From contig CM069150.1 of assembly GCA_035221665.1 (NCBI GenBank), forward strand, positions 9,114,001 to 9,178,000: 64,000 nt of DNA, read 5' to 3'. The stretch comes from Okamejei kenojei. Its lineage: Eukaryota. The position numbers were made by a program, and so were the translations under genes. Positions 1 through 46,974 of this stretch are shown piece after piece; within the stretch, counting starts at the first letter, position 1; the number at the start of each line of letters is the position of its first letter. The notes under the pieces were generated by a model. That model did no database searches. It worked only from the letters and a program-made list of their open reading frames with translations, and was not told where the DNA came from.

Positions 1-59
1 GAATCTGGTGGTAGGTACTTTCAAGCACTTCTATCTTCTTGCAATGGGAGAGGGGAAAA

Positions 60-1315
60 GGTTAGGTTTATTATTGTCACATCTACCAAGTACAGTAAAA
101 TGTTTTGCGTTGCACACCATCCATTCAGATCAGATAATACTATACACAAATGCAATGAAGCCAAACTTAAGTACAATAGTTAGAGCAAAGTGGAAGATAT
201 AGAGTGCAGAATAGAGTTTGCAGCATTGTAGTGCAACAACTGCATGGCCAAAGTCCAACGTCCGTAATGGGGTAGAGGTATAAGGGTCTAGGAAAGAATG
301 TTCAGACGCCTGATAACAGAGGGGAAGAAGACATTCTTCTCAGTCTGGTGGGGAGCGTGTTTTTAAGCTTCTGTACCTTATGCCTGATGGGAGAAGAAAG
401 AATGACCAGGTTGGGACATCTTTGATTATGTTGGATGCTTTTCCAAGGCAATGTGAAGTCTACATAGAGACAATGGTGGGGAGTCAGGTCTGTATGATAG
501 GCTACACATTACTATGGTTGGTCCACAATAGATCATTGGTAATATGAATGCCTGGAAATTTGAAGCTCTCAACCCTTTCTACTTCAGCACCATTGAAGCT
601 GATAGGGGCATGTACTCCACCACACTTCCTGAAGTCGATAACTAGCTCCTTCATCTTGCTGACATTGAGGGAGAGGTTGTTATCCTGACACCGTGTTACC
701 AAGTTCTTTATCTCCATCCTGTACTCCATCTTGTCATTGTTTGTGAATCGACCCACCACAGTAGTGTCATTTGCAAACTTGTAGAAGGAGTTAGAGCCGA
801 ATTTGGCCTCACAATTGTGTGTAGAGGGAGTGAATTGGAGAACTGAAAACACATCCTAGTGGGGAACTGGTATTATGAATTATTGTGGTGGAGTGTTGTC
901 ACCTATCCTCATTTATTGTGGTTTATGGGTCTGAAAGTTAAGGATCCAGTGGGTGAGGGAAGCGCTGTATTCCCCTGTCCAGAGTAAGTGACTGGGGTGT
1001 GAATGGTCTTGATTTTGTTGATTTCTTTCCTGAGACTACGTGAAGTATATAGAGAGCCAAGGGGGGGGGGGGGGGGGGGTGGGGTTGGAGGCAGTGGGCA
1101 TAAGCAGGGGTGGGTGGGTGGCTGGTTTGAACGATGGACTGGACTATATCCACAACACTGTCTTTTCTTGCAGTCCTGGGCAGAGTAGTTGCCAAATCAA
1201 ACTGTGATGCATTCAGATAGGTGCTTCATTAGAAGTTGATAAGAATCATTTGAGACATGCTAAATTTCCTTCCTCTTTTGAGGAAGCAGAAGCATTGGTA
1301 TTCCTTCGTGGCCGT
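60..1315 (-). mobile_element. Rex1/Babar-type LINE 3' fragment, degenerate; boundaries approximate
   Basis: ORF 502-852 reads KFANDTTVVGRFTNNDKMEYRMEIKNLVTRCQDNNLSLNVSKMKELVIDFRK, a typical Rex1/Babar RT C-terminus. Confidence 0.8.
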
Positions 1316-3710
1316 AACTTCAATGTTGCTGTCAACATCAGCATTATCATTCTCACACTGCTTCCTGTACACATTCTTATCGTCTCTGTCATCCATCGTT
1401 ATAATAAACAAAATACAAAATGGAAGTAAGATAGTTAAAATAGCACAAAGTCTAAATAAATTACAGCATAGTTCACAAAGCAGCTCTGTACTCCTACACT
1501 GTATGCACAACAGCTTTTCCTTATGTACAAGTTACAAATTTGCAATCATGTTATGAGCGTTTTAGCCCACGCATTGCAAATTGTGTTCTGTAATTCATCA
1601 ATCACTTTGTATCCAATTCACACTATGGAAACAAGTCTTGAAGGAGAACTACCTGTAAATAAACTATATGATTCCAATTCACTGTCAATTTTAGCCGTCT
1701 GAATAATTCAAAATTTTCAATTCCACAATACACAAGGGTGAAAGTTATTGGTTGTGGGCAGCAATGTGGAGTCAGTTCATAATGCTCTTATTGAACGGCA
1801 GAACAGGCTTCAAGGGTCATGTGGGTTACACCTGCTCATATTTATATGTTCTGAATACGTGATTTTCTTTTTTTTAAAAGCCCGATCTTTGGTCTAAGTT
1901 GTAATTTTTTAAATTCTATTCTTTAATGCACTACCCATTTACTTTTCCAAAATGTACATGGGATGAAGGATCATTCACTTGAATGTTAACCCGTATTTAT
2001 TTCACCACTGATCATTGGCTGTCCTGTTGAGTGTTTCGAGCACTTTGAGTTGCTCACCTATCACGTAGGCAAGTTAATATGAGACAACTCCCTCATTGTC
2101 TTTGTGGAATACTTGGTTTTTCCAAACCTATCATTCCTAGTTTGATTTTTAAGAAACCAGTTTCACACTGAATCAACTTGATTCAACCTTGTGTCACCCT
2201 GAATCAACCTTGTGTCACCCTACTTCCCAGAATATATATGAATTGAATTTTATAAAGAATAAACATGGACAATTTAATGATCTATTGTAAAATAGACTTC
2301 TTGCCTCTTACAGGAGCTATACAAAACCTACTGGGGTTCATTCAGATTTGGGGTGACAGTAGAGCACCAATATTACACCAGGCGCCTGTTATACAATTTC
2401 ACTAATTGTAAATTCCACCAAAATCTGAGGGAGATGTCAAGTTATTGCCAACCCGGGTTTATGAGGATGACTGTCTCTTGGGACCTTTGGGTTCCAACAT
2501 TGCAGGCAGGGGCCTGTTGTCAAGTCCAAGGACTTGTTTGCAACTTAGAAAATCTATTTCTGTGTAGAATGAGTGGATCAACTTTGGTGCACAGCTTGCA
2601 GTTGATCTGATGACATTTTGTTATACTTTCATCCAGAAATAAAATTTGTCCTGTTGACACTGGATATTTTGGCCACTACATAAATTATTATTTTTGCATT
2701 CTCCCCTGACAACATTAATTATGTGATGAGGTAAAAACTGGTTAGCAATGACCTTAATAAAAGTACAGAACTGCCCCAGGTTATGAACGCCTGATTTATG
2801 TTCAGGCTGTACATATTGAGTGTTTCAGAGAGCAGCAGGGTAGATTTGCCAGCTGCTATGGGGCTGCAAGCACCTTCTGCCCGGTGGGAACTCCGTCCAC
2901 AGCAATATCTGAATGGTTGAGTTCAACATCCTGCTTTAACTACAGTGTGTAGAAAGGAGCTGCAGTCACTGGTTTATACCGAAGATAGACACAAAGTGCT
3001 GGCGTAACTCAGCAGGTCAGGCAGCATCTCTGGGGTAAAAAAGTGGGTGACGTTTCGGGTCGGCACCCTTCGGGATCCCGAAACATCATCCTTTTTTATC
3101 CAGAGATGCTGAGATATGACCCGCTGAGTTATTTCAGCTCTCTGTGTCTATTTTCTGGTTTAACTACGTTGCCCTTCGTTGGTTGATATTTTATTTAAAT
3201 ATATTGCCGAGCGGCCACATTTCTGACTTGCGAATTGTTCATGTTATGAACAGTTCTCAGGAATGGAACTTAATGCTAAATACTTAATGAGATAGCAGAC
3301 TTAATGAGATAGCAGACTTAATGAAGGGTCTGAAGAGGGCTCGCGACCCGAAAAGTCACCTATCCATGTTTTCCAGAGATGCTGCCTGACCCGCTGAGTT
3401 ATTCCAGCACTCTGTGAAACGTCACCTATCCATGTTCTCCGGAGATTTGTGTCCCTTTTTTGTAAACCGGCATCCTTGTTTCTAGACTTAAGGAGATAGT
3501 AGCTTTAGAATAGAATCAGAATAGTACTTTATTTGCCAAGCATGTTTTGCAACATAAGAGGAATTTCATTTGCCAAGTCAGTCATACAAAGTCACAGTCA
3601 CCTTTGATGGCTCCTTGTTTTTGAAAAGATGGAATATCTATCACCTGTATAAAGTTACAGACTTAACCACATTGATAGGTATTCTCTTCAAACTTGATGG
3701 GCATCAGTAT

Positions 3711-4575
3711 TGGGAGGTTTCACGGCAGTCGGGTCACGACCCATGACCCATACTGTTGCTACACTACGCCAAGTGGAGTACACGCGATGAACTGCAGGTA
3801 AGCACTTACCATCGTTTCCAGCGTAACGGGCCCGTCAAAACCCGCCGAAATCGTCATTCTTTGTGCTGTAAATAATTATGGAAATTGGGATAAGCGTGAG
3901 AAACATTTAGCCTACTTCAGAATTCCAAAAGTGAGGAGAAATGATGGTAGATAGAGAAGCGAGAGCTGAAGGGACAACAACAGCCAGAGTGCTTGGCGAA
4001 CATTGGCCTTTTGCTCACTGCATTTCATCAACTAAGGCATTATTTGTGTTTTTTCCTGATTCCTTTGGCATCTAAAAAGTTTCAGAAATGATAAATCTGG
4101 CTGTAAAATTTTAAAATAGCCCATGGTTTTTACATACAAAAAGAAAACGCCTCTGAAGCAAAATTTACAGCCAGATTTATCACTTCTGAGACTTTTTAGA
4201 AACCAAAGGAATCAAGAAAAACCACAAATAATGCCTTACTGTTGATGAAATGCAGTGAGCAAACGCTAGAATTCCCAATATTTTTAATTCGCCATGCACT
4301 TTAGTTGTGGTTGTCCGTTCAGCTCTCGCTTCTCTTTACCTTCATTTCGCTTCACTTTTGGAATTCTGAAGTTGGGCACATCTCTCATACTTACCCCGAC
4401 TTCCACAATTTTTTACAGCGCAGATATTCAACATTTTGGTGTTTTTTAACAGGTAGGAAAGTACACGTTTCTTGCATTAATAACATATACCGGAAGTTAC
4501 GGATGTCCTCCAGATGGATTGAGCGGCTCCGTGCGTCAAGCCCTATGACCCAGTGACCTTATGTGCAACCCCCTA
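3711..4575. mobile_element. Non-autonomous foldback DNA transposon with a THAP-domain remnant in each arm
   Basis: Long inverted repeat (~3860-4110 vs ~4160-4420); both arms read CAV-x-N...FRIPKV...CSLHF; imperfect termini tgggaggtttcac / gtgcaaccccct. Confidence 0.75.
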
Positions 4576-5242
4576 ACTCCCACTTGTGTTTCTCCATGGT
4601 GTTTCCCAAGGTTCCATTTACCACTTCCTTTGTATTCTACATTGTTATTCTCTTCAAACATCTTTTGGGAATAATTCCCAAATTTTATCTTTTCGTGTGA
4701 ATTTCACGATTGAGTTTCACGGGCGCAGCAGTAGACTTGCTGCCTGCCTTACAGCGGAAGCCGACTACAGGTGCTGTCTGTGCGTCTGATGGGTCTGGGA
4801 AAAACTAGGTTGGAGGCTGTGGAGGGAACATTCTCAGAAGGGATGAGATCTGTGATGGTTTGGGAGGTAGTGGCCTGGTGTTTGTGCCAGGATCATGGTC
4901 AAGGGGAAGTTATGAGGAGGTGTACGAGAGCTGATGCCAGGCCTTGGCACAGTAGAGTTCTGTCAGCCACATTACAACAGCACCACCCTTGTCCGTTCCC
5001 TTCATATATGCTGCCTGCTCGCGGACTTCCTCCGGGACTTTGTTTTTTACTCAAGATTCCACCATTTACAGTATCTTTTGTCTCCACATTCAGAACTACT
5101 GTTGTTTGCTATCTGGGGCTACATGATTATGATCACAGCACGTTGTTGATTGATCATAGCCCTGAGAACTCTGCACCCACCACCCACGCAAGATTTTGCA
5201 GCATTTTCTTTGTATTTAAAATCTTCAACATCCACAGTATTT

Positions 5243-5340
5243 TTGGTGGCATAGCAGTGGAGCTACGGCCTTACAGCGCCAGAGGCTCGGGTTTGATCCT
5301 GACTACGGGTGCTGTCTGTACGGAGTTTTACGTTCACCGT
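5243..5340 (+). mobile_element. HE1-type tRNA-derived SINE head
   Basis: A-box-like tggcatagcagtgg and B-box-like ggtttgatcc followed by gactacgggtgctgtctgtacggagttt, as in the copy at 28074. Confidence 0.7.
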
Positions 5341-5342
5341 AC

Positions 5343-5891
5343 AAAGGTAATGCTACGGTGGGTTAGGGGAGATTTCAACATGCAGGTAGACTGGGAAAAT
5401 CAGGTTGGTACTGGACCCCAAGAAAGGGAGTTTGTGGAGTGCCTCCGTGATGGATTCTTAGAGCAGCTTGTACTGGAGCCTACCAGGGAGAAAGTAATTC
5501 TGGATTTGGTATTGAAGAGGAAAATTGAGTTAAGACAAATGTGCGTCCCTTGAAGACAGAAACAGGTGAATTTATTATGGGAAACAAGGAAATGGCAGAC
5601 GAGTTAAACAGGTATTTTGGATCTGTCTTCAACAAGGAAGACACAAACAATCTCCCAGATGTACTAGTGGCCAAAGGACCTAGGGTGATGGAGGAACTGA
5701 AGGAAATTCACATTAGGCAGGATGATGTTGGATAGACTGAGGGGCTGAAGGCTGATAAATCCCCAGGGCCTGATGATCTGCTTCCCAGGGTACTTAAGGA
5801 GGTGGTTCTAGAAATCATGGACGCATTAGTAATCATTTTCCAATGTTCTGTAGATTCAGGATCAGTTCCTGTGAATTGGAGGGTAGCTAAT
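5343..5891 (+). mobile_element. CR1 LINE ORF2 fragment, left half, interrupted by the DIRS element
   Basis: GDFNMQVDW...FLEQLVLEPTREKVILDLV (endonuclease) and KEMADELNRYFGSVF; ends ...tggagggtagctaat. Confidence 0.9.
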
Positions 5892-6189
5892 TTTACTTAG
5901 GAGTGATTCCGTGAAGAAGGCCCGCCAGGACGCCTGCGCAGCATTACGTCAGTCGCATTGGCGCAAGCACCTGTCAGGCAGGACTGAGCTCCTGCCTGTG
6001 GTAAGTTAAACTTAAAGGTAAGTTTATTTTTACTTACCAGGGGTTTTAGGCAGGAGCCTCTTTTTACAGAGGTTTTCTGCCAGTTTTGCAGCCCGACAAC
6101 TTGCCGGTTATGGACTGTGGTGAAATTTCAGACCGACCGCAAATGCGGAAAAACCAGCAAAATTGATCGGGTTGCGAGTTAGTTAGTTA

Positions 6190-6422
6190 GTGCAGTTAGC
6201 GGCTCCCCAGCTGCAGTAATGCCATAAAAACGGCAAGAAATTTAATCAGAGTCGCTGACAGAGGGGTCAGTGGCTCCGCAACCTGCAGGGATGCCGTGGG
6301 AACGGCAAGGAATATTAAACTGAGTCGCTGACAGAGCGGTCAGCAGCTCCAAGCCTGTGGTATGCCGTTGGAACGGCAAAGAAGCAACGCTGCAGCCGCT
6401 GACAGTGGGGTCAGTGGCTCAC
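6190..6422 (+). repeat. ~72-bp tandem repeat, about 3 copies, inside the DIRS element
   Basis: gagtcgctgac/cagccgctgac recurs at 6249, 6322 and 6393 with tgcc...acggca between. Confidence 0.85.
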
Positions 6423-6683
6423 AGACGTTGGTCCCCAGTCAAAAAATTACTGGGACTCATTCAGCCCTCGGGTGAGTTGGGATATAAGGGTTCTCCTTAC
6501 AATTAAAAGTATGTATTTTATAGTGTTTTTTCTTTAAGTAAAAAAACTTAAGGCAAAGAAAAAGTTATTGTTATATGATATTGTTCTGACAATGTTATTA
6601 TTGTTTAGCACGTAGCGTGTGCCTATGCACAGGTAAAGCTGTACACTAAATGTTGATTTAGTGAGCTTACACAGCAATAGCGC

Positions 6684-7090
6684 GGCCTATGGGACAGGCT
6701 GCGCCAGCAGCGCCTGACAGGGCTGCTTCATGTGCAAAATGTGCGGGCCTATGGGACAGGCCGCGCCAGCAGCACCTGACAGGACTGCTTCATGTGTAAA
6801 ATGTGCGGGCCTATGGGACAGGCCGCGCCAGCAGTGCCGGACAGGGCTGCTTCATATATAAAAGTGCCGGCCTACGGGAGAGGTGTGCCAGCAGCGCCTG
6901 ATTCAGGGCTGCTTCATTTGTGACATTACCGGCCTATGGGAGAGCCGTATCAACAGCGTGTGACAGGGCTGCTTCAAGTGCTGGCTTACGGGAGAGCCGT
7001 GCCAACAGCGCCTGATGCAGGGCTGTTCATGACAAAAGCGCCGGCCTTTATGAACGGCGGCGCCAGCAACGCCTGGCAGAGGGTTGCTTA
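6684..7090 (+). repeat. ~62-bp tandem repeat, about 7 copies, inside the DIRS element
   Basis: Unit ggcctatgggacaggccgcgccagcagcgcctgacagggctgcttcatgtgcaaaatgtgcg starts at 6684, 6746, 6808 and diverges progressively. Confidence 0.92.
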
Positions 7091-9699
7091 AATTCACACA
7101 TATCTGCTCGCCCACGGAGTCGGGAGATGATTCTCCACCGGGGTTAGAGAGCAAGGCCTACGGAGTCGGGGGATGAATTCCTCACCATGGCTGGATAGTG
7201 CATTGAAACAACTATCCTTATACAGCAACTGTTGTATACAGTGCTGCAAAGGTCTCCCTCTCGGAGGCAGAGACCAAGATGGGTCAGTATCCCGCTGACA
7301 CTGAGACTCAGGGTATGGCCGTGGGGCAGACCCAAAGGGATGAAGGGCACGTGTCAGAGGTCGCTTTCCTGACAATTAAGTTGCCATCCCAGTAAAATAT
7401 TCTATTGGGGTAAGGCCAATGGGTTCATATCAGTATTTGTATCCTACGAATCACTCTTAGAAAGGAAGAGCAAAAGGTCAAGATGACTCCGGGCTCTTAA
7501 GATGTCAATAGAACAGACTCAAGTACATATGTGCCGGCAGTGAACAACGCCAACAGGGGGATGTGAGAGTCAGCCGCTGAATCGGTTATTCAGGTAGGTC
7601 TATTCTACAGGGGAAGAAGCCTGGCAGATGAATTAATTCGGCCATCAACGGGCAAAAGTCATCATTCAGAAACACACCCCAGGTGCTCATCGGCAGTAGC
7701 GGTTCACTGGAGCTGGGGGCAGCATGATACAGCTCAGAAATTCCTTGCACCTTCCGATCATGCTCAACTAAATGGGTCTAGCACTTCCAAAATTTGGGTA
7801 GTGCACCGTTCACAAGTTGTAATAATTACATTTGTTTGTTCAACACGCAAGGGGTAAAATATTTGGTTGAGGCACAGCCGTAGCATTCCAAGTAAGTTGG
7901 ATTATGGCCAGGGTTTGGAAATTGGGCAGAAGTTCTCATGCAAACCACCCATGCAAAAGGCAGGATTGGCATGTTATTATGAAGAACGATGAGTATCTGG
8001 CATATGAGCTTCTGTATGTAAAACATTTACTCCTGACTTCCACAGGTTCATAAGGTAAGAGATTCATGTTATACAAATCCCATTACAAAGGTTATCAAAT
8101 ACAATATAACTGTACTATAACAGTGGGCTCTGCAGTATGGGATAGACTGTTGTTGGTCATTGAGATTTACCTGTAATTATTATTATCCTTGTCTCCACCT
8201 TGTGGCAAGAGATTGGGGTTATAGCAATCTGTTACAAAACTGATTAAAGTAATTGGCAATATAGCAGCTGTGTTGCAGCTGAGCTAATCAAGGAACTGAT
8301 ATTGTGTAAGTAGCAATTAGATCGTTGCTAACAACCTTGCGCTATTGTCAGCTGAGGCTACTTCAGCCACAATGATGAAGTAACAGTATTCAGCATTGCT
8401 GAACATGACCGTACTCATTGAACTTGAACTTGAAACCTGCTACAGTAGTGTGGTCGGTTGAATTCAGTTGTTATGAACTGATGTTCGAACTCTAAGATGA
8501 GAAGTTCGAAATACCATCACCTACTCAAAGGTAGTGGAGATTGCATGAGCACCAATTCTTCAGTTGTTGGTATCAACTAAATGTATACACTTAATGCACC
8601 GTTGAGTAAGGTTTTGAGTGAATATACATATTCTTCATGCACAAAGTTAAGTTGCTGCTCTATAATTGTGACATATGTTACTCTCATGGTAATTAGGAAG
8701 AATATCCTGTAATTGATCTCCTTGCCACTGGTGTATCGTCCAGTTTAGATTGATGATAACACAGAATAAATGTTGGATCTCAGAGCATGATTCAATACTT
8801 TATCAAATGTTTGTCATGTTTATGCATGTTCACTGTTTGCAAAAATATGTGACACAACAGTGTGGAGAAATATATTCTTGTTTCAATAGAAGGAATGGAC
8901 TTTATGTCTTCCTCATTAGCTGGGTCTTAAAACAGTCAGCAAGACCTCGTTTGGATTCGTACTATCGGACTGGCCAAGCGTCCATGTTACCTGCTTCATC
9001 AGGCATTATGGCACAATGGTATTCAGTTATGCCAAAAAGCAAGAACTTGCTGTTTTAAACTGTGGTTCAGGAGACTGGTCTTTGCACAGTAAAATGATTA
9101 TTGACTTACACATTTTCAATGGATTAATTTATGCCTCATGTTGTCACATTTAGCCATGAGGGTGTTCACTGCAGTATGCATGGATAGCATCCAAAAAAAC
9201 AGTACATCCCTATTGAGGGGATCAGAAATGTTGTTAAATATTATGATACATTTGATACGATACAAATTACTGACATTTCCAGTTAATTTTAAGTGATATT
9301 GACAATAGTTCAATTATAGAGAAATTACAGCTGTAACATAAGGGAACTACATTGTTGGGTCCAACCCGGATATCAAGCTGTTAAAAAGATCTTGATACAA
9401 GTATTCGCATCACAAGATTATGCAGTTGGTTATTGTAAATGTGTAAACATTATTTCACCAAGGGGTTCCAGCTACATCCTTAGTCATGACTCTAATATCA
9501 GCACAACGACGGCAAAACATTGCGAATGCTGTGGCTGGGCAGGATGGAATTGGCTGTTCATGCCATTACATATTCATTCTGGTCTACACTAGCAGAGCTG
9601 ACCAGGGCTGGCATGGTTTTAAGATCATTTGAATACCCCACTGTCTCAATTTTATGTTATCAAGGCCACCAGAATCCTTAGAAGTATGGATTCAGCACT

Positions 9700-9990
9700 G
9701 TGTATTCGTTAATAAACAATTACACAAGAAAAGGTCAGTTCAGACTATTTCAAGGTGGCTGCAATAGGTATTAACATTGACAATTGTATGTCTCATTCCA
9801 CCAGGTCAGCATCAACGTCAGTTTATCATTTAGAGAGTGTGTTTACATCTCATTATACTAGGGCAGCATCTATGTTGGTGGTCAAATGGAGGTATGTGTC
9901 CTTCGACCAAATTTTAGTGGCCGTCGGATGGGCAAATGAGCTGATGTTTCAGAAATGTATCATCGGCCAATTGTCAATCCAGGGCTGTTT
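9700..9990 (+). pseudogene. DIRS tyrosine recombinase C-terminal remnant
   Basis: QTISRWLQ*VL, SHSTRSASTS, SHYTRAAS, DQILVAVGWANELMFQK match the HSTR...GW...F-x-x-x-Y pattern; stops and frameshifts present. Confidence 0.75.
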
Positions 9991-10504
9991 GCCAATGTCA
10001 TTTTAAGTACCTAAATTTTAGGGGTACTGTTGTTTGTTTACATTGTTAAATAAACCCTATCGTTACATTGAATATAATGTTATTACTAATGCATTTATTT
10101 CTCTTTCGAGTCAATCAAATGCAGTGGGATGCCGAGATTGTAATCTGCGGCATGAAATCACAAAGCTTTGAACTCTTCACGGAATCACTCACGTGACTCC
10201 GAAGTAAAATAGTAAGATTAAACGAGAAATTACCAGTTTGAAGTTTGATCTTGATTTTATGAGGAGTTACGTTGGTGATTACGTGCCCACCACGCCCAAC
10301 CCTCTCTCATAAAAGATCATCTGGTAGTTCTCGAGTCACTGATCTTACTGTTTACTTCGGTGTTGTTTATTTGTGATTTCATACCGCTGCTTTGAAGTTT
10401 GCTGCGCAGGCGTCCTGGCGGGCCTTCTTCACGTAATCACCAACGTAACTCCTCATAAAATCAATATCAAACTTCAAACTGGTCAGTTCTCATTCAATCT
10501 TAGT

Positions 10505-11897
10505 ATGTTATCCCACTTTTTAAGAAAGGATGGAGAGAGAAAACAGGGAATTATAGACCAGTTAGTCTGACATTGGGGAAGATGCTGGAGTCAATTATAA
10601 AAGATGAAATAGCAGCACATTTGCATAGCAGTAACAGGATTGGTCCGAGTCAGCATGGATTTACGAAAGGGAAATCATGCTTGACTAATCTTCTGGAATT
10701 TTTTGAGGATGTAACGAGGAAAATGGACAAGGGAGAGCCAGTGGATGTAGTGTACCTGGTCTTTCAGAAAGCCTTTGATAAGGTCCCACATAGGAGATTA
10801 GTGGGCAAAATTAGAGCACATGGTATTGGGTGTAGGGTACTGACATGGTTAGAAAATTGGTTGGCAGACAGGAAACAAAGAGTAGGGATTAACAAGTCCC
10901 TTTCTGAATGGCAGGCAGTGACTAGTGGGGTACCATAAGGCTCGGTGCTGGGACCGCAGCTACTTACAATATACATTAATGATTTTGATGAAGGGATTAA
11001 AAGTAACATCAGCAAATTTGCAGATAACACAAAGTGGGTGACAGTGTGAACTGTGAGGATTCTGAGGATGCAGGGTGACTTGGACAGGTAGGTTGAGTGT
11101 GCAGATGCATGGCAGAAGCAGTCTATGTGGATAAATGTGAGGTTATCCACTTTGGTGCCAACAACAGGAAGGCAAATTATTTGTCTGAATGGTGTCAAGC
11201 TAGGAAAAGGGGAAGTACGAGATCTGGGTGTCCTTGTCCATCAGTCACTGAAAGTAAGCATGCAGGTACTGCAGGTAGTGAAGAAAGCTAATAGCATGTT
11301 GGCCTTCATAACAAGAGGAGTTAAGTATAGGAGCAAAGAGGTCCTTCTGCAGTTGTACGGGGCCCTGGTGAGGCTGCACCTGGAGTATTGTGTGCAGTTT
11401 TGATCTCCAATTTGAAGGACATTCTTGCTATTGCGGGAGTGCAGTGTAGAATCACAAGATTAATTCCCAGGATGGCGGGACTAAGATATGTTGAAAGAAT
11501 GGAGCAACTGGTCTTGTATACACTGGAGTTTAGAAGGATGAGAGTGGATCTTATTGAAACATATAACATGAAACATAGAGGCAGGAAACATGTTCCCGAT
11601 CTTGGGGGAGTCCAGAACCAGGGACCTCAGTTTAAGAATAAGGGGTAGGCCATTTAGAACGGAGATGAGGAAAAACTTTTTCACCCAGAGTTGTGAACCT
11701 GTGGAATTCTCTGCCTCAGAAGAAAGCAGTGCCGATTCTCTGGATGCTTTCAAGAGAGAGTTAGATAGAGCTCGTAAAGATAGCGGAGTCAAGGGATATG
11801 GGGAGAAGGCAGGAACGGGGTACTGATTGTGGATGGCCAGCCATGATCACAGTGAATGGCAGTGCTGGCTCGAAGGGCCCAATGGCCTACTCCTGCA
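10505..11897 (+). mobile_element. CR1 LINE RT and 3' end, right half after the DIRS insertion
   Basis: QHGFTKGKSCLTNLLEFFEDVT...FQKAFDKVPH...VTSGVP; RLHLEYCVQF; CR1 3' UTR. Confidence 0.95.
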
Positions 11898-12189
11898 CCC
11901 ATCGCCAATTAGACACACAGATCCCTCCAAAAAGTATATTGTCTAAATGGTCGGAGACTGTACTAATGTATGATTCACAAAAAGCTAGTTTGCAAATAGA
12001 ACAAGTAAGAAAGCTGATAGAATTGTATTATTTATTGCTCAGCAGACTAAAAACAAAAGTAGAAAGGTTAAGAAGTCATATGATAGATTTGTGAGTCAAC
12101 AAATGGAGTAGCATGTATAGTACTGGTAGCAGTCCTGCTTGAGGAACTACATTGGACACAGTTCAGAGAATGCTTAGTCGACCAATACC

Positions 12190-12750
12190 AAGTTCAAATT
12201 CAAGCATTCTATCATATGCATGAGTGCAGTGAAGTAGCTACAAGTAGCTTGCAGCAGCATCATAGGCACATACACACAAACTATGCTTAATATATATAAA
12301 TTACACATACAATTTCTAAAAGGAAGAAGACTGTGCAAGCACACAAGATATTCATGCAAAAACAGAATGAGTAAAGAACAATTCTACAGTAGTGCAAGAG
12401 ATGGGTGGTAGTGTTCTGGTGATGAGGTAGCGTTAGGGTTGTATAGGTTACTTCGAGAACCTGATTGTTGTAGGGAAGTAGCTTTTCTTGAACCTGGTGG
12501 TGTGGGAATTCAAGCATCTGTACCTCCTGTTGTCAAAAGTGAAAATAGTCCAGATGGTGGGAATCCTCGATGCTAGCTTCTTGAGGCAGTGCCTCATGTA
12601 GACACTTTTGATGGCGGGGAGGGTTGTGCCTATGATGGACATGGCTGAGTCCACCACTCTCTGCAGGCACCTATGTTCCCGTGCAAAGGAATTGTCACGC
12701 CAGGCCCTGATGCAAGCCAGGATATTTTAAATAGAACATCTGTAAAAGTT
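12190..12750 (-). mobile_element. Rex1/Babar-type LINE 3' fragment
   Basis: IIGTTLPAIKSVY...RRYRCLNSHTTRFKKSYFPTTIR. Confidence 0.7.
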
Positions 12751-14499
12751 TAGATAGCCACAAAATGATGGAGTAACTCAGTGAATGAGACAGCATCTCT
12801 GGAGAAAATGGATAGGTGACGTTTCAGATTGGGAGCCTTCTTCAGACATTTCTTCACTCTGAAGAATCCCAACGGGAAACATCACATATCCATTTCTTCA
12901 GTCTGAAGAAGGGTTTGACCCGAAACGTCACTCGTCCTTTTTCTCCGGAGATGCTGCCTGACCCCCTGAGTTACTCCATTGTTTGGTGTCAACTTTGGTA
13001 TAAACCAGCATCTGCGGTTCATTTTTAATACATCTGTAATGTATTTGAGTATTCAGAGGCAGACTGAATCTATTTGAAATTCTCAAAAGTAGTCACCATC
13101 AGTTGGGCTCGGCGAGCCTCACGTGGTAAAGTCCTGGCGAGCTGTGGCCATAACCCCGACAGTAGGCCTGGTTCGCCCATCACGGACACGGGAGAGGGAA
13201 GCCATGGAACCTGGCCCCTGCCCACTCCCAAAGATCGGGAAGGAGGTGGAAGGAGTCGACGACAGCAGCAAACATTGGACAAGGGATGGTAGGAAGAACA
13301 TGGGGAGCCTTACCTTCCTTGCCTTCAAGGTCAGCTGCAGGAGGTGCTCCAGGGCACAAAGGTTGAAGAGGGCCGGGCAAGGAAAGAGACAACAATTCAC
13401 GGGCCGACCAGATGGAGGCGACAGCTGCAACAGGGCTTTATGACCAGCTGTATTTGGGACTGTGAAATGATGCCAAAACCTGGCGACTCTTGCAAATAGA
13501 CTCAGTGGGCTGTTTCTATGAATGATGTACTTAATTGGGGATTGTACTTATACATGGCAATAGTATTACTGATCTGTATACAAAAAAAATCTCACTGTAC
13601 CTTGGTACGCATGATAATAAAGGAACCATTGATCATCCGAGATGTTAGCACCCAGGAATTTGAAGCTGATAACTCTCTCCACCACCAACCCACCAGTGAA
13701 AACTGACTGGTGGTCCGTGGACTTCCCCTTACTGAAGGTAATAATGTAATTTTAAAAATCTGCAGATGCTGGTTTATACCAAAGATAGACATAAAATGCT
13801 GCAGTAACTCAGCGGGTCAGGCAGCATCTCTGGAGAAAATGGATGTGACATTTTGGCTCGGGACCCTTCAGACCGATTGCAGTGGACTGGAAGCAAGAAA
13901 GACCAGGTCAAATCAGGGCCAGCAACAGGTGAAATCAGGCAGGCTGCTTTGCCCGATAGGCCAATTGTTGGCTAGGGATGGTGTGATCCAGATTGAGGAC
14001 TGCCAATGGGAGGTCAAGAATCCGGTAGTAAAGAAGGTTACAGTGGCTCAGGTCTTGGAGCTTGGTGATGAGTTTGGGAGAATTACAGTTGTGAAAGCCA
14101 AGCTGTGGTTGATGATCAACAGCCTGATGTATGTGTTCCTGTTATCTAGGTATTCTAGAACAGAGTGGAGAGCCAGTGAGATAGCAGCTGCTTTTGACTG
14201 GTAGTGGTGCCAGGCAAATTAAGGCAGTCCCAGATCACTTCTGAGCCAGCTATTAATTTACACCATAGCCAACCCTTAAAATTACTTCATTACAATAGAT
14301 GTAAGTGCTACCAGACGGTTGTCAGGTCACTGTGCTCTTCTTAGGCACCGGTACAACAGATGCCCGTTTGAAGCAGATTTGAACTTCAGACTTCAGAACA
14401 GGGTGAAAATGTCCCTGAATACCCCAAGCAGATGGTGTGCAGAGCATTTCACGCTCATCCAGTTATACCATCTGGGTCAGACATGTTCCGTGGATATAT

Positions 14500-14885
14500 C
14501 CTCTGGAAGGACGCTCTCATCAACCTCATTGGTCCAAGTTCGTAGTTCCCTAAAAGTGGCAATACAGGTAGATAGAGTGGTAAAAGAAGGAATGGAGAAT
14601 GCTTGCCTTCATCAATTGGAGCATTGAGTATAAAGGTCAGGATGTCATGTTGCACCTTAATAGGACTTTGGTTAAGCTGTATTGGAATATTTTGTGGAAT
14701 TCTGGTCCACCATTACAGGAAGGATGTGGAAGTTTACAGCATTTGGAGCATTGAGTATAAAGGTCAGGATGTCATGTTGCACCTTAATAGGACTTTGGTT
14801 AAGCTGTATTGGAATATTTTGTGGAATTCTGGTCCACCATTACAGGATGTGGAAGTTTTGGAGATGGTGCAGAAGACGTTAACTA
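14500..14885 (+). mobile_element. CR1 fragment containing a 127-bp tandem duplication
   Basis: IEYKGQDVMLHLNRTLVKLY repeated; ttggagcattgag at 14616 and 14743. Confidence 0.8.
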
Positions 14886-15606
14886 GAAGTTCAGTCAGTT
14901 TATTGTCACGTGTATCAGGGTACAGTGAAAAGTTTTTGTTGTGTGCTATCCAGCCAGTGGAAAGACAATACATTACAATTGCGCCATTTACTGTGTATGA
15001 TAAGGGAATAACTTTTAATGCAAGGTAAAGTCCGATCAAAGATAGTCCAAGGATCACCAATAAGGTAGATAGTAGTTTAGGACTGCTCTCTTCTTGTCTT
15101 AGGAAGATTCAGTTGCCTGACAACAGCTGGGAAGAAACTGTCCCTGAATCTGGAGGTGTGTGTTTTCACTTCTATACCTTTTGTCCAATGGGAGAGGGGC
15201 GAAGAGGGAGTAGCCAGGGTGCGACTCATCCTTGATTATGCTGCTGGCCAAGCTTCCTAGATTAGAGGGTATCAGATATAAGAGGTTGGATTGTTTTCTC
15301 TGGAACATTGAAGGTTGAGGAGAGACCTGATGGAAGTATACAAAATGATGAGAGGCAGATATGGTGGACAGTCAGAAGGCGTAGGTTTCAGATTAGAGGG
15401 GTAATATATAAAGACAATGTGCGGGGCCACATTTTTTTGAGTGCTGCCAGGGATGGGAGATGGGAGACAGATAAGATAGGTCTTATGAGCTGTATGTTTT
15501 ATGGTTGTCAAGAGCTGTGGGGCCTTGGTAGGTGTATCACTGATGGCGTGCAAGTCCTGCTACAGCTGTTTAGCGTCTGTGTGTGACTCCAGATTAGCTT
15601 GAAGTT

Positions 15607-15658
15607 GGGGTGGAAGATTGCAACCTTCACGTGGTCCACCGTTTTGACTAATGCAATC
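15607..15658 (+). ncRNA. Minimal HDV-like ribozyme, copy 1 (P1' 2 nt short)
   Basis: GGGGTGG-AA-GATTGCA-ACC-TTCACGT-GGT-CCACC-GT-TTTGA-CTAA-TGCAATC fits the P1/P2/P3/L3/P1.1/J4-2 topology. Confidence 0.7.
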
Positions 15659-15744
15659 AACTCGACGTGCACAAACGGAAGATCAAATAGAACAAGTTGT
15701 CCAACAAATTTAGGCTGTGCATGCCACACGAAAGAAGAAGATGA
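15607..15744 (+). mobile_element. Short ribozyme-headed non-LTR retroelement, copy 1 (Vingi/Ingi-like tail)
   Basis: TSD agcttgaagtt at 15596-15606 and 15745-15755; 3' end gccacacgaaagaagaag; homologous to 44118-44251. Confidence 0.85.
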
Positions 15745-17774
15745 AGCTTGAAGTTGTCTCGGTGGATTTCAGCAAGTTATGCCTAGACTTGAATGAATGA
15801 ATGAATGACATGTGACAAGTCGCAGTGAAATTCTTTGCTTGCATACCAAAGGTATGCAAATAGTTGCCACATAAGGGCGCTGACAAAGTTACATAGTATC
15901 TGCGCCAGGTCCTCCATTGTCCCTCTCCCCCCACATCAACTCCTCCTTTGTTCCTTTCCTTCAAAAGCAGCGTCATCACTGCGCGTGGTCCGTCCTCGTC
16001 CATCGGTCCATCGACCGCCGCACCGACCTCTGCACTATCGCTGACGGGCCTCTCCAGAAACCTCCGTGGCGCCAACCAGGCCCCAACCACATGGCTCTGT
16101 CGTCTCAGGGCTCCGACCTCAGCCATGGGCTCCATCAGTCGCAGGCTCCGACCTCGGCCATGGGGTTCATTAGCCGCGGGCTCCGACCGTGGCCATGGGG
16201 TCCGCTGACTTTGCTGGCCACGGGCTCTGACCCACGGGGGCTCCAGCCTCAGCTACTCCGCGGTTCGCCAGGAGCCGTAGCAGCTCACCAGGCGGCTTCT
16301 TGTATGATACTACTTTGCATGATACTGGATCGCCAGTCGTAAACACCACAGATCTCGCCCTTTAGCAAAATACCAATCTCCTGGTTCATCCAGGACTTCT
16401 AGTTGCGAAGACTCAAAATGGGCAGGTTGTCTTATGAGGAAAGGTTGCACAGGTTAGGCTTGTAACTGTCAAGAGTGAATTAAAGTAAAGTGGAGTATAT
16501 CCTAAAGGGTCTTGATAGATTGGGCATGGAGACGATATTTCCTCTTGTGGGAGTAGCTAGATTTTTTGGGCAATTTTACATCTTCCCACATTATTTTCTA
16601 ATTGCCAGATCATTTCCTACTCACTGAACATCTGTATCCCTCCATTTCCAGCCCACTTTACGCCCTTTTCACAACTTTCCTATATACCTTTGTGTCATTG
16701 GGCAATTGAGCAATCATACCTTCAGCATCTTCACCCAATCTTCATTATAATTTCCTTATATCTTTCCAAAGGTATCTTTGGTAAAATACTTACTTATGTC
16801 CATTATTTTTCTTATTAACCAACCAATTGTCCAACCTTGTCCCCAATGCCATGGCATTTTATTTTCTTCAACAGATTTTGACACATTGCCTTGGACTCAT
16901 GGAAACAGACCCTTTGGCAGAACCTATCCATGTCAACCAAGATGCCCCATCTAAGTTAGGCCCATTTGCCTGTGTTTGGCAAATATATGAGACCGCACTT
17001 GAAATTGTCCCCCCCACCTAAGCCAGGTGAGGTAGCCAACCTCATTGGGACTTTCGCGGCTAGGCTTGTGATCGGCGGGTTGAAATTCCCCCTTGCAGCC
17101 GGGGCTCTGGAACTACGGCCCAGTCGGAGCCAGTGGATTCGTTTCCATGGCCGACTTCTGAGGCTGACTTTGCATTAAATCTTACCCCCCTATGTTTTCT
17201 GGTTCTTGATTCCCCTACTTTGTGCATTCACCTTTATCTATTCCCCTCATGATTTTATTTATTGCTGCAAGATCACCCTTCATCCTCCGGCGCTCCAAGA
17301 AATAAAGGCCAACCTCTCCCTACAGCTCAGATTTCTTCTGAAAATCTAAGCACAGTGCATCCATCCCCTGCATTTATGTATTACCTTTGTAGAGAACTAC
17401 AATAAATTAGATAACATGATTTTACTTTTGATTTTTCCTGAATATCTAGACTTTTTCTAAGAATCCTGCTTCAACACGGAATCATAAAGTGATACAGAAC
17501 AGAAAACGCCCTTCAGCCCACCATGTCCGCACTGACCATTAACACCAATCCTATATTAATCCCTTGTTTTACATTTTCCCCACATTCACAACTCGCTCCA
17601 GATTCTCCAACTCACCTACACACTAGATGCAATTTACAGAGCCCAATCAAGTGACCAACCTGCATGCCTTTGGGATGTGGGAGGAAAGCAGTATACCAAG
17701 AGGATATCCACTAGAGGAAACACAGACAACACGTAAGATTGGGAATGAACCGCAATGAGGCAGTCTATTATTTG

Positions 17775-17990
17775 TGCAGGAACTGCAGATGCTGGTTTAA
17801 ACCAAAGATAGACACAAAAAGCTGGAGTAACTCAGCGAGTCAGGCAACATCTCTGGAGAAAAGGAATAGGTGACGTTTTGGGTCGGACCTGAAACCTGAA
17901 GAAGGGTCTCGACCCGAAATGTCACCTATGCATTTTCTCTATAGATGTTTCCTGACCCGCTGAGTTACTCCAGCTTTTTGTGTTTGTCTT
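17775..17990. repeat. Head-to-head inverted pair of Penelope-like 3' termini (hairpin element)
   Basis: acacaaaaagctggagtaactcagcg ... cgctgagttactccagctttttgtgt; similar pairs at ~2946-3160, 12760-13030, 19970-20155, 50643-50810. Confidence 0.85.
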
Positions 17991-18940
17991 CTATTATTGT
18001 GCTACCGGGTTGCTTATCTTTAATGATATCTATCTATTAATGATGTCTAAGCCTGTAGTTTCTTGCTTTCCTCGTTCTTTGATCCTGTTCTCCAATACAA
18101 TGAAATATTCCCCAAATAAAGGGAATCTTGGGAAATTAAAACAAATACATCAACTATGTCACTAACTGCTCCAGGGATGAGTTCCAGGGATTTGTCAATA
18201 AGCAGCTTCAACAATTTTGTTCCCTGGTGATTGTATTTTTCCTGGGTTCCTGGTGATGTATTTAGGTTGCACGGGTGATGGGGAGAATCAGATGATTGTC
18301 CTCCTTCAAAGCAGGAAGCTTGCAAATGTACCCAACAAGTTGTGCAGGACGTGAGGCTCATCGGAGGCCCAATTTGGAAGAACATCACCTCATATTTCAC
18401 TTAGGCAGCTTACACCCCAGCGGTATGAATATTGACTTCTCTAACTTTAGGTAACCTATGTATCCCCTCTCCATCCATCCCCCCTCCTAGTTCTCCAACC
18501 AGTCGGTCACCCTGATTAAATTGTATCTCTGTATGCTTCGTTGTCACCTTCTCCTAGCTAACAATGATCTATTCTACATTTTCCTTGATTTCCACCCTTT
18601 TTAATGTCTCGTTCTCACATCTGTGTCTCCCTCTCCCCTGACTCTTGTTGGAAGGGTCTCGACCCGAAACGTCACCCTTTCCTTCTCTCCAGAGATGCTG
18701 CCTGACGAGCTGGGCATTTTGTGTGTATCTTCGGTGTAAACCAGCATTTGCAGTTCCCTCTTACAAAGTAGCCAACAATGTTGGCTGGTTGTTGACAAAG
18801 CTCCTTTCGGATCTTTGGTTCTTGATGCTGCAGTGGCCGCTCTTCCTACTCCGGTGCCATAGATGGCGCTGCGCCGGGAGGTCAGCCTCTCCTGCCGCGG
18901 GCCCGGTTTCCCTCAGCGGCGTGTGTTTACTCCGGGACCC

Positions 18941-19063
18941 ATGGGCGAAAGCAGTGGACGGAGTGGCGGGAGCGCCGGCGCTGGCGGCGGCCTGCGGGCC
19001 AAGGGGATAAGCGATGAGTACTTCGGGAGCGCGGCAGACTGGGAAGAACAGGATGGCTCTATG
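18941..19063 (+). CDS. NELFCD: NELFCD exon 1 coding part (alternative in-frame ATG at 18863)
   Basis: MGESSGRSGGSAGAGGGLRAKGISDEYFGSAADWEEQDGSM then donor gtgagt at 19064, phase 0; resembles human MDEDYYGSAAEW; lies in a CpG island. Start codon uncertain. Confidence 0.85.
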
Positions 19064-41610: not shown

Positions 41611-42979
41611 AAATTGACTAATTCGCTAACTTACCGATTTGCTAATTAAATTTCTCAGCCAATCCCCGCACTCACTCCTTTACTTGCTTGAAGGTATGTG
41701 GAGGATGATCACAGCCACGTTTCCTATTTCAGATAAAGTCAACTGTGAGATGTGAGTAATAAGCTCCTAGAAGACCTCAGTAGGCCAAGCGGCATCTGTT
41801 GGGCCCCTTCCACTGGACTGAAAGAGTGGAGGGAAGAAAATCAACATAAAGAGGAGGTGGGGTGGAGCAGCAACTCTTACCCCACCAAGCAGATTGTTTT
41901 TTGCTCAAGATTCCAGCATCTGCAATTTAGCAATGTGAAGACACCTCAAAGAAACAGCTTATCATCTACCCTTCAAAGCAACTTTGGGAGGAAGGTTCCA
42001 CACTGGGTGCTCTCCCTATGGGAATTCTGAATGCAGAACACCTCAGCATGCTTGGAACTTGCATGGACTCGGAACAGATAACCGCCTCATTTCAGCCTAC
42101 TTATGTATTCCATTCGCAAGCAGACTCTTTAAGCACACATCTCATATTTAACCACAAGCATGGCTTGTGATAACATCTTCATAATAAAGTCTGCTTTCAG
42201 ACACATTTGATGGATTACAGTAATCTTTCAACACTGTCGAATGATTCTCAGTTACATTCTCACACGTAGATAGAGCATAAGTCGATGGCTGTGAGCAATT
42301 TGAGCTACATGCAAATGTCACCAAGAATTAACAAGTTGTTACTAGTGAGTGATAGAGTAAAGGGTCATCCATTTATAACAGAGTGAAGTAGAATTTTTGC
42401 ATTCAGAGGGTTGATAATCTTTGGAATTCACTACTCCATAGAACTGTGGAGGTGAAGTCATTGAATGTATTCAAGGTGGAGATTGATTGACATTTTAACT
42501 ATAAGGGAGTCAAGTGGAATGGGAAGTGAGCAGGAGAGTTGTATTCTAGCTATGTTAGGATCGACCATAGTCCTATTGAAAGGCAGGGCGGGGCTGTGGG
42601 GGCAATTAGCCTACTACTAATATTGTTATGAAAAACTGATTCCAAGGAAAGATAACTTTCCTTGTCAAATCTGCTGCTTTATGTCCATGACATTTTGATG
42701 CACATTTACTTTGGCTCTGTCACCTTCCTTCAGTACAGGCAGCATCCCTGTAATGAATCCTAGAACTGCTCCTTGTCCTGTAGGAGAAAGATAGTGCACA
42801 GCGTACCAGTGGAAATTGAATATGAGGATGGACTATCTAACGATTTAAAACAAATAGTAAATATAATAAGAACCAAATCTCTGGCTAAATCAAAACCAAT
42901 TTAATGGGGTAAAAAGTCACTTACCTTTTATACATTTGTTCAGGAGGTAAATTGTTTTTATGTTTTTGTCTCACCACAG

Positions 42980-43132
42980 CTAATTTCAGATGCTGGATAC
43001 CAGGGTGAAATAACCAGCGTGTCAACGGCCTGTCAGCAGCTAGAGGTCTTCTCCCGCGTTCTCCGCACCTCTCTTGCCACACTTGTTGATGGGGGTGAAG
43101 AACATTTGGAGAAAAACCTGCCGGAATTTGCA
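42980..43132 (+). CDS. NELFCD: NELFCD exon 6
   Basis: cag|LISDAGYQGEITSVSTACQQLEVFSRVLRTSLATLVDGGEEHLEKNLPEFA|gtgagt; 153 nt. Confidence 0.97.
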
Positions 43133-43789: not shown

Positions 43790-44117
43790 TGCTCCTTTGG
43801 GGCATGCAAGAAGGGAGAAGAGCGGCAATCTCGAGATCCTGGGGAGGGAGAATCGGGGAGGGGATAGAGGGAGGGGAGTAGGGAGGGGAGAGGAGTTATG
43901 GAGGGAGCGAGTGACTGAGGGTAGGGGAAAGGAGAGGTCAGTTTCTGTGCTGGTTTTCCCAAAGTCAGGAGGTCTCACAGTACTCTGTTTCCCTTGAGGG
44001 CTAATCCCACAAGGAAGTGTGGCCTATAGTCACTGTCATTAAACCCACGCTCTGGGGTCGTGTGCTCTGTAATGCTGTCAGGCAGAGAAACATTGATCTG
44101 ATTACAACAGCTTGTCT

Positions 44118-44251
44118 TCTTCTTTCGTGTGGTGTGCCCAACCTAAAGTTGCTGGACAACTTGTTCTATTTGATCTTCCGTTTGTGCACGTCGAGTTGAT
44201 TGCATTAGTCGAAACAGGGCGGGCCACGTGAAGGTTGCAATCTCCCACCCC
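44118..44251 (-). mobile_element. Short ribozyme-headed non-LTR retroelement, copy 2
   Basis: TSD aacagcttgtct 44106-44117 / atcagcttgtct 44252-44263; (GAA)n tail; same 5' start as copy 1. Confidence 0.85.
44198..44251 (-). ncRNA. Minimal HDV-like ribozyme, copy 2
   Basis: GGGGTGG-GA-GATTGCA-ACC-TTCACGT-GGC-CCGCCCT-GT-TTCGA-CTAA-TGCAATC; G1-U wobble at the cleavage site; one P3 mismatch. Confidence 0.75.
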
Positions 44252-45275
44252 ATCAGCTTGTCTCTTCCACTTTCACTTCATAATCTGATGGAGCATCTTG
44301 CTCTTTAATCAGGTGGTATTCTTTAAATTACTAGTTATATTGTCATTATATATGAACTTCATATAGGTCTTGTGTCATTTGTTCCCAAAATCCTGTAATA
44401 GACCCTACACCGTGACTTTGAATAACAATTTACACCACCATGGGAGTGTTAAAGAAACTGAAGTAATTAGTTAAACAATCCTTGTAAATTATGGTAAGAT
44501 AATCTTCATATCCTCATTATATCCTCCTCTACAATTCCCTTTCCTTCGCAGTTCTTCTGCTATTTCAAACATCATCCCACACCAAATGACCCAACACATC
44601 TTTGTTGAAAAGGCACAAGAACAAAACCTGGGCCATGTGATTAACTCACATTTATTTGGTGCTTGGTCTATCTCGCTGACCCACAAGCCAGGTTAGAGCA
44701 GCTAGAAATGACAGCAGTTTGCCCCAGAGTTAATGGTGGTTGTTGTTATGGGCGTGTATTATCCTCCTCCCCAATCAGAAGTTAAAATCTTCCCCTACCT
44801 CATCTCATTGATGTTGATCTATGTAATGTGGTAGCTTGACTTAATGCACTATACATCTGGACTTGGCTCAACGGCATATGCAAAATATCATCATTCTCCA
44901 TGTCCCGTCTGGCATATCTATTAGCTGCACTGCTGCTTTATTAAAATGGGCTACTATCAGTTTCAGCATCTTTTGATCTATCAGAAACTGAACCACTCTT
45001 TCCAAACCTCTTTTAACTACCTTCAGAAAAAGGAAAACCCTGTTTCTTCGTGGCTTCCTCTCCTCCCGAGACATCTGCACTTCCATGAAAAGGACTTGCC
45101 CACAGTCACGTTTGTGTCTAGCATGTGGCCTGAGGACCCAGTATCTGGTATACTAATTGATACTGGATATTATCCAACCCCACTATACACGAGCTTTCCC
45201 TGACACCGGGGTATAACTAAGTGCAGGGAATATACTACAATTGTACTTCAATTAATTAGGTTGTTTGGTTTCTAA

Positions 45276-45472: not shown

Positions 45473-45656
45473 TTTAGGTTCTAGTAGTGGCAGCTTCTCC
45501 GGCTTTATTTACATTTCTAAACATGTATTTTAGTTAGCGGCTCTCTGACTACAAGACTCCCTGTTGTTCCTTTTGCTGGTTTTAATTTAAGATTCCCATT
45601 TGTATGCATATGTGAAAGAGGTTGTTCACTAATATTGTTTTTGACAATATTCACAG

Positions 45657-45787
45657 AAAATGGTATGTCACGGGGAGCATACATACCTTTACGCTCAGTC
45701 TATAATGTCTGTGTTGGCTCAAGAAGAACAAGGTGGGGCAGCTGTCCGAAGAATTGCACAGGAAGTTCAGAGATATGCACACGAGAA
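45657..45787 (+). CDS. NELFCD: NELFCD exon 7
   Basis: cag|KMVCHGEHTYLYAQSIMSVLAQEEQGGAAVRRIAQEVQRYAHE(K)|gtaaga; 131 nt. Confidence 0.97.
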
Positions 45788-46974
45788 GTAAGAATATAAT
45801 CAATCCTTTGGAACTTTGGGACTTTGGAAAATTTCAAAGGCTTTATTTCAAAGACATATGCCGCTGTATTTATTGAAATAATTCCCTTCCTACTGTTCCT
45901 AACCTGCTCGAGGATACAGTTCCATTTTCATTGGTCACCTTGTACCACATTGTGCATGGGGATCTTCCACATGTGGGCATGGGTCATCATTCTCATTCGG
46001 GCAAAGATAGACACAAGAAGCTGGAGTAACTCAGCGGGACATGCAGCATCTCTGGAGCGAAGGAATGGGTGACCTTTTGTGTCGAGACCCTTCTTCATAC
46101 TGGTTAGGAATAAGGGAAACACGAGATATAGATGGTGATGTAGAGAGGTAAAGAGCAATGAATGAAAGATATGCGAAAAAGTAACAATGATAAAGGAAAC
46201 GGGCCATTGTTCGCTGTGTGTACAGTAAAAATGAGAAGCTAGTGCGATTTGAGTGGGGGAGGGATAGAAAGAGAGGGAATGCCGGGGCGTCCTGAAGTGA
46301 GAGAAATCAATATTCATACCACTGTAAACTGCCCAAGCAAAATATGAGATGCTGTTCCTCCAATTTGTGTTTAGCCTCATTCTGACAATGGTAATGGCAC
46401 TCTGCTAAACTCTCATTTGGGCACTGTTCACACTCTATCTATGAGCACTATTCATCTGCTGTATGTCTACTTCTCATATTCCATTGTCCATTAGATGTGT
46501 ACTGGTCATCATTAACTCACCCATGGGCATCTACAGTCAATCGTGCATTTGTGCTGGTCACTTTACACCATTTTCATTGTCATGGTATTTATATGGCTGG
46601 TAAGGTGACTTTCTTGTCAATGTCTCAGGTTAATAACTCAGCTATAGTAACGTCATTGAATAAGAAGAGTGAGCAGTTAGATTCTGTGGTTGGAAATGGC
46701 CACTGTGTGGCAATTCATGGCATGAATGTTACTTGCCACTTAACAGCGCCTGAATATAGTCGTGGCCATGCTGTATGCAGGCATGGGCTCATTCATGCAC
46801 CGAGGAGTTGCAAATGGAACTAAACATTGTTCAATCAACAGCGAACATCACAATTTCTCTCTTTTGAAAGTTGGTCATGGATGTATGAGCCAGAGATAGC
46901 CAAGCCTTGGAAACTGCCTTGAGGAATTCTTGCAATGGTAGTCTAGGATGATTGACTCCAACAATAACAACAAT

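Follow-up and report, generated by a model that had tools for sequence, protein, structure and literature searches.

The genome of Okamejei kenojei contains a high-copy family of short retroposons which, in our judgement, are probably freed from host transcripts by their own head, a predicted HDV-like ribozyme without P4. We hold with comparable assurance that self-cleavage is the origin of the element 5' end, at the nucleotide called G1. Two copies of the element were found in the window, that is, the whole stretch of 64,000 nucleotides of contig CM069150.1 (GCA_035221665.1) that was analysed. Their coordinates are given in Table 1, together with those of related heads found on LINEs at other loci.

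Table 1. Coordinates of the two element copies and associated features in the window, and of predicted ribozyme heads on Vingi-like LINEs (locus handle before the colon).
Feature	Position	Strand	Remarks
Copy 1, left TSD	15596..15606	+	11 bp, directly against G1
Copy 1, whole element	15607..15744	+	
Copy 1, predicted minimal HDV-like ribozyme	15607..15658	+	P1, P2, P3 and L3, without P4
Copy 1, predicted catalytic C	15648	+	
Copy 1, 3' body	15659..15730	+	8-bp inverted repeat and terminal CCACACG motif
Copy 1, tail	15731..15744	+	(GAA)n type
Copy 1, right TSD	15745..15755	+	exact match to the left duplication
NELFCD, likely first coding exon	18940..19063	+	from sequence; later exons by PF04858
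Copy 2, whole element	44115..44251	-	
Copy 2, predicted ribozyme	44198..44251	-	predicted catalytic C at 44208
Copy 2, upstream duplication	44252..44263	-	12 bp; partner at 44106-44117 differs at one base
Vingi-like LINE family head	L164:1354-1442	+	distinct HDV-like fold
Vingi-like LINE family head	L175:2273-2357	-	distinct HDV-like fold
Vingi-like LINE family head	L199:4475-4541	-	distinct HDV-like fold
Vingi-like LINE family head	L194:4360-4499	-	distinct HDV-like fold

The two copies are 91% identical and are flanked by different TSDs, both of which adjoin G1. A previous reading made from the sequence alone (hereafter the sequence-only reading) had noted that copy 1 starts exactly at G1 with an 11-bp TSD of its own and that the two copies have complementary defects in P3, P1' and pair 5/32, and all of this is seen in the sequence. 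In copy 1, P3 is perfect and pair 5/32 is U5-A32, but P1' is 2 nt short at its end. Copy 2 has U5.G32 at this pair and one mismatch, A17.C29, in P3; its remaining pairs are all intact. At each of the 54 ribozyme positions, the ancestor that had been reconstructed by the same reading agrees with the commonest letter in 71 alignments. The 2-nt deletion in copy 1 removes the normal G1.U36 and G2-C35 pairs and the P1.1 register, and the predicted ribozyme of this copy is likely weak or dead. Copy 1 is probably an inactive insertion and the interest sits in the family as a whole. The 3' body is closed by an inverted repeat, 15666-15673 with 15716-15723 in copy 1 (8 bp, and 10 bp in an older subfamily), which may be a structure recognised by the RT of a helper element.

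With regard to the host gene, the start codon of NELFCD at position 18940 places copy 1 about 3.2 kb upstream of it, as had been stated. Copy 2 had been described as intronic and antisense to the gene, and so it is, because plus-strand TH1 (PF04858) exons at 42947-43132 and 45651-45791 lie on either side of it. The ORFs of positions 1-18400 (127 of the 134 listed were scanned) yielded no host-gene domain and a single RT fragment (PF00078), located upstream of NELFCD at 10504-10935.

Copy numbers were obtained over the 2.76-Gb assembly. Exact matches to a 26-nt core number 9,092 (4,553 on the forward and 4,539 on the reverse strand), compared to none for the reversed control, and therefore the family is not a product of chance. 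By rough extrapolation from the nine insertions found in 1.0 Mb of dynein gene tiles, the genome would hold about 25,000 copies. The element is non-coding, measures about 137 nt and occurs in at least two subfamilies, with the terminal motif CCACACG, or CCATACG in the older one; Repbase or Dfam may already list it as a known repeat family. At least 90% of the sampled words of the element were present in 20 listed sequencing runs (12 studies, eight organism labels), matches that serve as a lead only on its spread among organisms. Three copies lie within 10 kb at G000:C12:60467522-60477013, and the two that were fetched have identical flanks, so this cluster represents a segmental tandem duplication and not separate insertions. 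At L265:6908-7190 (gene-sense coordinates), a copy is split by another abundant short repeat with a duplication of about 14 bp, an insertion that gives the relative age of the two repeats.

The 5' ends were examined in 30 loci fetched with the 3' 64 nt only, which avoids selection for intact heads; the query locus was then dropped, leaving 29 copies. Shared sequence running past G1 in most copies, which would have spoken against the sequence-only reading, was not observed: the alignment starts at nt 1-3 in 25 of the 29, and the flanks of 94 copies have no common sequence upstream of G1. Among the other four, one starts at G1 with an internal deletion and three are truncated (at nt 9, 17 and 62). 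TSDs, mostly of 10-16 bp, were found in 24 of the 29 copies, with the boundary exactly at G1 in 11 and within one base of it in 17, as placed by a noisy boundary finder. Base -1 is a pyrimidine in 73 of the 94 copies (for the whole-element set, obtained with a query starting at G1, 24 of 29), and the 94 flanks are A-rich at -11/-12; both biases suggest an endonuclease target preference. The TSDs, the simple-repeat tail and the lack of coding capacity are those of bipartite LINE-type elements such as SIDE and NARTc. As for a classical SINE head, we found no tRNA in the window, no Rfam match and, in copy 1, no A/B-box pattern.

These ends could be generated as follows. Read-through host transcription across a copy would produce an RNA that the predicted ribozyme cuts just 5' of G1, and the pseudoknot would lend stability to the freed RNA, about 137 nt long. 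A LINE protein acting in trans, likely of Vingi type, would then copy this RNA back by target-primed reverse transcription starting at the (GAA)n tail, and insertion at a staggered cut would leave copies starting at G1 with duplications of 10-16 bp. The idea that a common 5' end in separate insertions is defined by self-cleavage had originally been drawn from the two copies in the window. Two copies that start alike cannot, by themselves, separate self-cleavage from a promoter start or from easy full copying of 137 nt, and the support that the idea has now gained comes mostly from covariation and from read data.

The predicted fold comprises nt 1-54, with P1 formed by 1-7/30-36 (including G1.U36), P2 by 10-16/48-54 and P3 by 17-19/27-29, plus a 7-nt L3, a one-pair P1.1 (C22-G37), a 7-nt linker and the J4/2 sequence C44-N-A-A. 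P4 is absent, since only 7 nt (37-43) are found from P1' to C44, compared with 18-42 nt in LINE heads. A covariation alignment was built from 7 element copies and 11 LINE heads of the Vingi-like families A, B and C described below, omitting family D, whose P2 is bulged. Standard pairs occupy 98.4% of its cells, and two-sided changes occur at 13 of the 18 pairs, including P1.1, where C22-G37 is replaced by U-A. These changes fall between four independent families. None of 500 shuffles reached the pairing or the covariation score, and slid-partner controls pair at 38-47%; the shuffle figures are not to be read as P values, given that the structure was derived from these same, related sequences. 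C44 and U20 are invariant in this alignment, G25 is conserved in at least 90% of it, and C44 is kept in 66 of 69 element copies. None of the variants common to many copies, at nt 5, 8, 31, 32, 41 and 45, disrupts the fold. The combination C5.A32 did not occur in 97 alignments, which also agrees with the fold, although chance alone would have given only about 2 cases. Through covariation, then, the element shows the nested double pseudoknot of HDV-like ribozymes (P1, P2, P3, P1.1) in a form without P4.

The Rfam HDV ribozyme model RF02682 independently falls where the ribozyme of the family C head was predicted, with 32.6 bits and E=0.011, below the cut-off, and no match at gathering score was obtained in the 64-kb window or for an element locus elsewhere (L017). 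Rfam models ignore pseudoknots and carry P4, and the lack of a match is not a defining failure for an HDV-like ribozyme. Energy folding that is blind to pseudoknots gave no signal for the element (z +0.2 to +1.2), a measure that is uninformative for such a fold. Assignment to the theta ribozymes proper was discarded, since these need a phage tRNA neighbour; the window is without tRNA and the element is a vertebrate interspersed repeat.

Public reads from four runs, belonging to two studies under one organism label (which may not be Okamejei kenojei), were mapped on a clean copy. Loose letters ahead of G1, which we take to be the template-switch adapter ending in GGG, form a consensus before G1 in 1,578 of 2,758 and 1,303 of 2,640 reads of the stranded single-cell runs (agreement 0.82 and 0.78). 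The signal is weaker in the bulk runs, with adapter before G1 in 488 of 3,641 and 629 of 3,745 reads and agreement of 0.44-0.46. RNA 5' ends had been anticipated at the self-cleavage position, and it is there, directly at G1, that the adapter is joined. Oligo-A loose ends were also seen at the element tail and may result from priming on the purine-rich tail.

This pile-up might be a library artefact at the G-run, in which case the uniform genomic starts would reflect easy full copying of 137 nt and the fold would be inherited and dead. Short elements are, as is generally known, seldom 5'-truncated, which speaks for such a view. Template switching, moreover, has known artefacts (PMC6280765). 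However, the adapter GGG stands before all four Gs of the element, giving 7 Gs, and the junction lacks the pattern of strand invasion, which would give four Gs in all. Strand invasion would also produce a signal at position 1500, where the consensus is poly-T and no adapter is found. In addition, subfamily-level variants avoid helix-breaking changes, and a fixed start still requires a cause. We consider an artefact with a dead fold to be very improbable.

A second explanation is that the head acts mainly as an internal promoter that fixes the start at G1-G2, the HDV fold being secondary or vestigial, or else dual in function as in the trypanosome Pr77/L1TcRz. Template switching can take place whether or not the RNA end is capped, and one untemplated G is often added at caps (PMC6280765); because caps add a G, the junction fits an uncapped G1 end or a capped G2 start, and a capped G1 less well. 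Seven Gs would thus also result from a capped G2 start, and insertion of such an RNA could bring G1 back. A dual promoter-ribozyme role has been described in the related Ingi/L1Tc clade (PMC3383444). Nevertheless, the sequence of the head changes across families while its pairing is kept, there is neither a tRNA head nor an A/B-box pattern, C44U is depleted in sense RNA and the broken intronic copies are the sense ones, as detailed below. We regard a promoter as the main function of the head as improbable and infer that the element moves independently of one. Under self-cleavage, the cut could also occur during extraction or reverse transcription, as is possible for such RNAs (10.1101/2024.07.19.604288), and this would still mean that the ribozyme is active.

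Base changes were compared between sense and antisense reads. C44U makes up 2.3% of sense and 6.1% of antisense reads (ratio 0.38), C24U 5.6 and 11.8 (0.48) and G25A 3.8 and 6.9 (0.55), and the loop changes C41U and G42A are unchanged between strands (0.92 and 0.94). The harmless change G32A is as depleted in sense reads as C44U (16% against 38%, ratio 0.42) and the pair-weakening C35U, U29C and G49A show no clear depletion, so a few highly expressed loci may drive the ratios, in which reads are non-independent and both stranded runs come from one study. As a sign of catalysis, the depletion of C44U is indirect and no more than suggestive.

The sequence-only reading had also proposed that sense copies in introns are purged. 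The intron sample consisted of 100 tiles of 10 kb in dynein heavy-chain genes plus the NELFCD part of the window. The 10 insertions found were 7 antisense and 3 sense, a non-significant difference (P=0.34). The near-intact copies (two broken pairs at most) were 6 antisense and 0 sense, or 5:0 without copy 2 of the window (P=0.06). All three sense copies are broken, through loss of the P1 5' strand, of part of P2' or of P3/L3 (Fisher P=0.033, for a split by intactness picked once the first six insertions had been seen). An abundant control repeat showed no bias in introns (114:109). The strand test is small because the intron sample ended at 1.0 Mb, and its outcome is suggestive of purging. Among the dynein loci, G000:C21:2126447-2622293 has a minus-strand DHC_N2 stretch (2436629-2440164) between plus-strand DHC_N2 and Dynein_C matches, an arrangement that could reflect an inversion, a problem of the assembly or a pair of neighbouring genes.

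We looked for a LINE that could act as helper. A decayed endonuclease-RT element of about 3 kb ends in the same kind of motif and tail as the retroposon, and its relatives form at least four families (A-D), each headed by its own version of the fold with a longer P4 region. In the family B head, P1.1 is U22-A37 and G1-C replaces G1.U. We call these LINEs Vingi-like, a label based on their architecture and motifs. Intact relatives encode about 1,000-1,050 aa on contigs of about 3.1-3.6 kb, with endonuclease and RT only and without RNase H in 4 of 4 scanned. Vingi elements are defined in PMC13708176 as having a compact single ORF with APE plus RT and no RNase H, and the predicted architecture of the candidate helpers fits this definition.

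The direct parent did not appear in our searches. A search pattern in which the ribozyme core was followed further on by an endonuclease motif had 0 matches, and no LINE with matching P1/P2 or 3' body was found among the best candidates scored in the LINE screens, nor in a C-terminal protein search (family A alone, best 150 of 4,183 candidates). Outside the terminal motif, the 3' body of the element showed no clear match to five LINE 3' ends (best 21 in 1,000 shuffles, not significant after five tests). Two other families were rejected for having no ends in common with the element: the top PF14529 family (two-ORF, about 5 kb; L061-L090 and L121) and, as judged by its 3' ends, an RTE-like PF20049 family (L141-L160). 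A young LINE of the former, at L121 (G000:C2:28223500-28232500), measures about 5.1 kb and has two ORFs, the second an intact frame of 1,276 aa; its copies are 95-98% alike over the compared stretches. The latter has a short hairpin and (AAG)n at its 3' end.

The element might then be mobilised by an RTE-type or other LINE instead of a Vingi, with the ribozyme being real. No parent was found, the RTE-like family present here likewise ends in (AAG)n, and RTE elements carry HDV-like ribozymes and make bipartite derivatives (PMC5786205). On the other hand, the motif CA[CT]ACG precedes the (AAG)n tail in the Vingi-like families A-D and is absent from the 20 RTE-like loci examined, and the ribozyme core matches that of family A at 22 of 26 nt. 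We think an RTE-type helper unlikely; in any case, this alternative concerns the helper alone and is compatible with self-cleavage of the element.

Ribozyme-headed non-autonomous LINE derivatives are a known class, represented by the R2 SIDEs and by NARTc/RIME, and some metazoan LINEs and SINEs use HDV-like ribozymes (PMC6765202). R2 SIDEs and R2/R1 hybrid SIDEs resemble our element in being non-autonomous and in joining a 5' HDV-like ribozyme to a LINE-type 3' end; as is proposed for our element, they are released from a co-transcript and copied in trans (PMC3414825). SIDEs are, however, rare and confined to the rDNA of Drosophila, whereas the vertebrate element is dispersed in at least 9,000 copies, is about 137 nt long and has no P4. 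NARTc, RIME and SIDER are short dispersed derivatives of APE-type LINEs with an HDV-like ribozyme at +1, from the Ingi/L1Tc clade, Ingi being the sister of Vingi; they differ in that they are trypanosomatid, their 77-nt head bears P4 and is also a promoter, and their parents are known (PMC4035085). Bipartite Vingi elements, such as the derivatives of Vingi-1_EE, belong to the likely helper clade and are short and internally deleted (PMC5786205, PMC4494074); in our case four Vingi-like families show the fold, and the direct parent was not among the LINEs recovered. In PMC5786205, bipartite derivatives are given for RTE, Ingi, Vingi and R2, and Vingi is not among the six clades credited with ribozymes.

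Regarding the fold itself, drz-Mtgn-1 and the theta ribozymes share with the element the lack of P4, a near-equal P1'-P2' length and the catalytic C as first base of J4/2 (PMC10879173). According to the same source, these minimal ribozymes are of unclear origin and almost confined to phages, with nearly 99% in tailed phages and tied to tRNA processing, whereas here the ribozyme heads a retroposon; the eukaryotes screened there were human, mouse and protists. Our searches covered the open literature, including a 2026 preprint, with subscription papers, patents, Repbase and supplements outside their scope, and found no published description of the element family or of a Vingi ribozyme. Vertebrates have another HDV-like ribozyme in CPEB3, which also has only one pair in P1.1 and whose L3 is similar, but it is single copy, sense-intronic and has P4. 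To our knowledge, it is not a mobile element.

The ribozyme-headed element itself had been recognised by the sequence-only reading, which missed the family of at least 9,000 copies and the link to Vingi-like LINEs. What is new is the minimal ribozyme at the head of a high-copy vertebrate retroposon, and the ribozymes on Vingi-like LINEs. A broader statement, to which we give about even chances, is that at least 9,000 and probably tens of thousands of promoterless copies carry an active minimal ribozyme which cuts them free from host RNA, that sense intronic copies survive only when broken, and that ribozyme heads, so far unreported, are general to Vingi LINEs. If true, the minimal P4-less ribozymes would gain a eukaryotic home and a function. 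The thousands of mutated natural copies, in combination with stranded RNA data, would constitute a ready mutational scan of a ribozyme in cells, and the family makes testable both the promoter need of ribozyme-headed retroelements and the strand-wise purging of intronic ribozymes. Gene-writing platforms make use of Vingi-1, and in one of them the driver RNA keeps its native 5' UTR (PMC13708176); a ribozyme in the Vingi 5' UTR, together with a natural minimal template of 137 nt, would bear on the design of templates.
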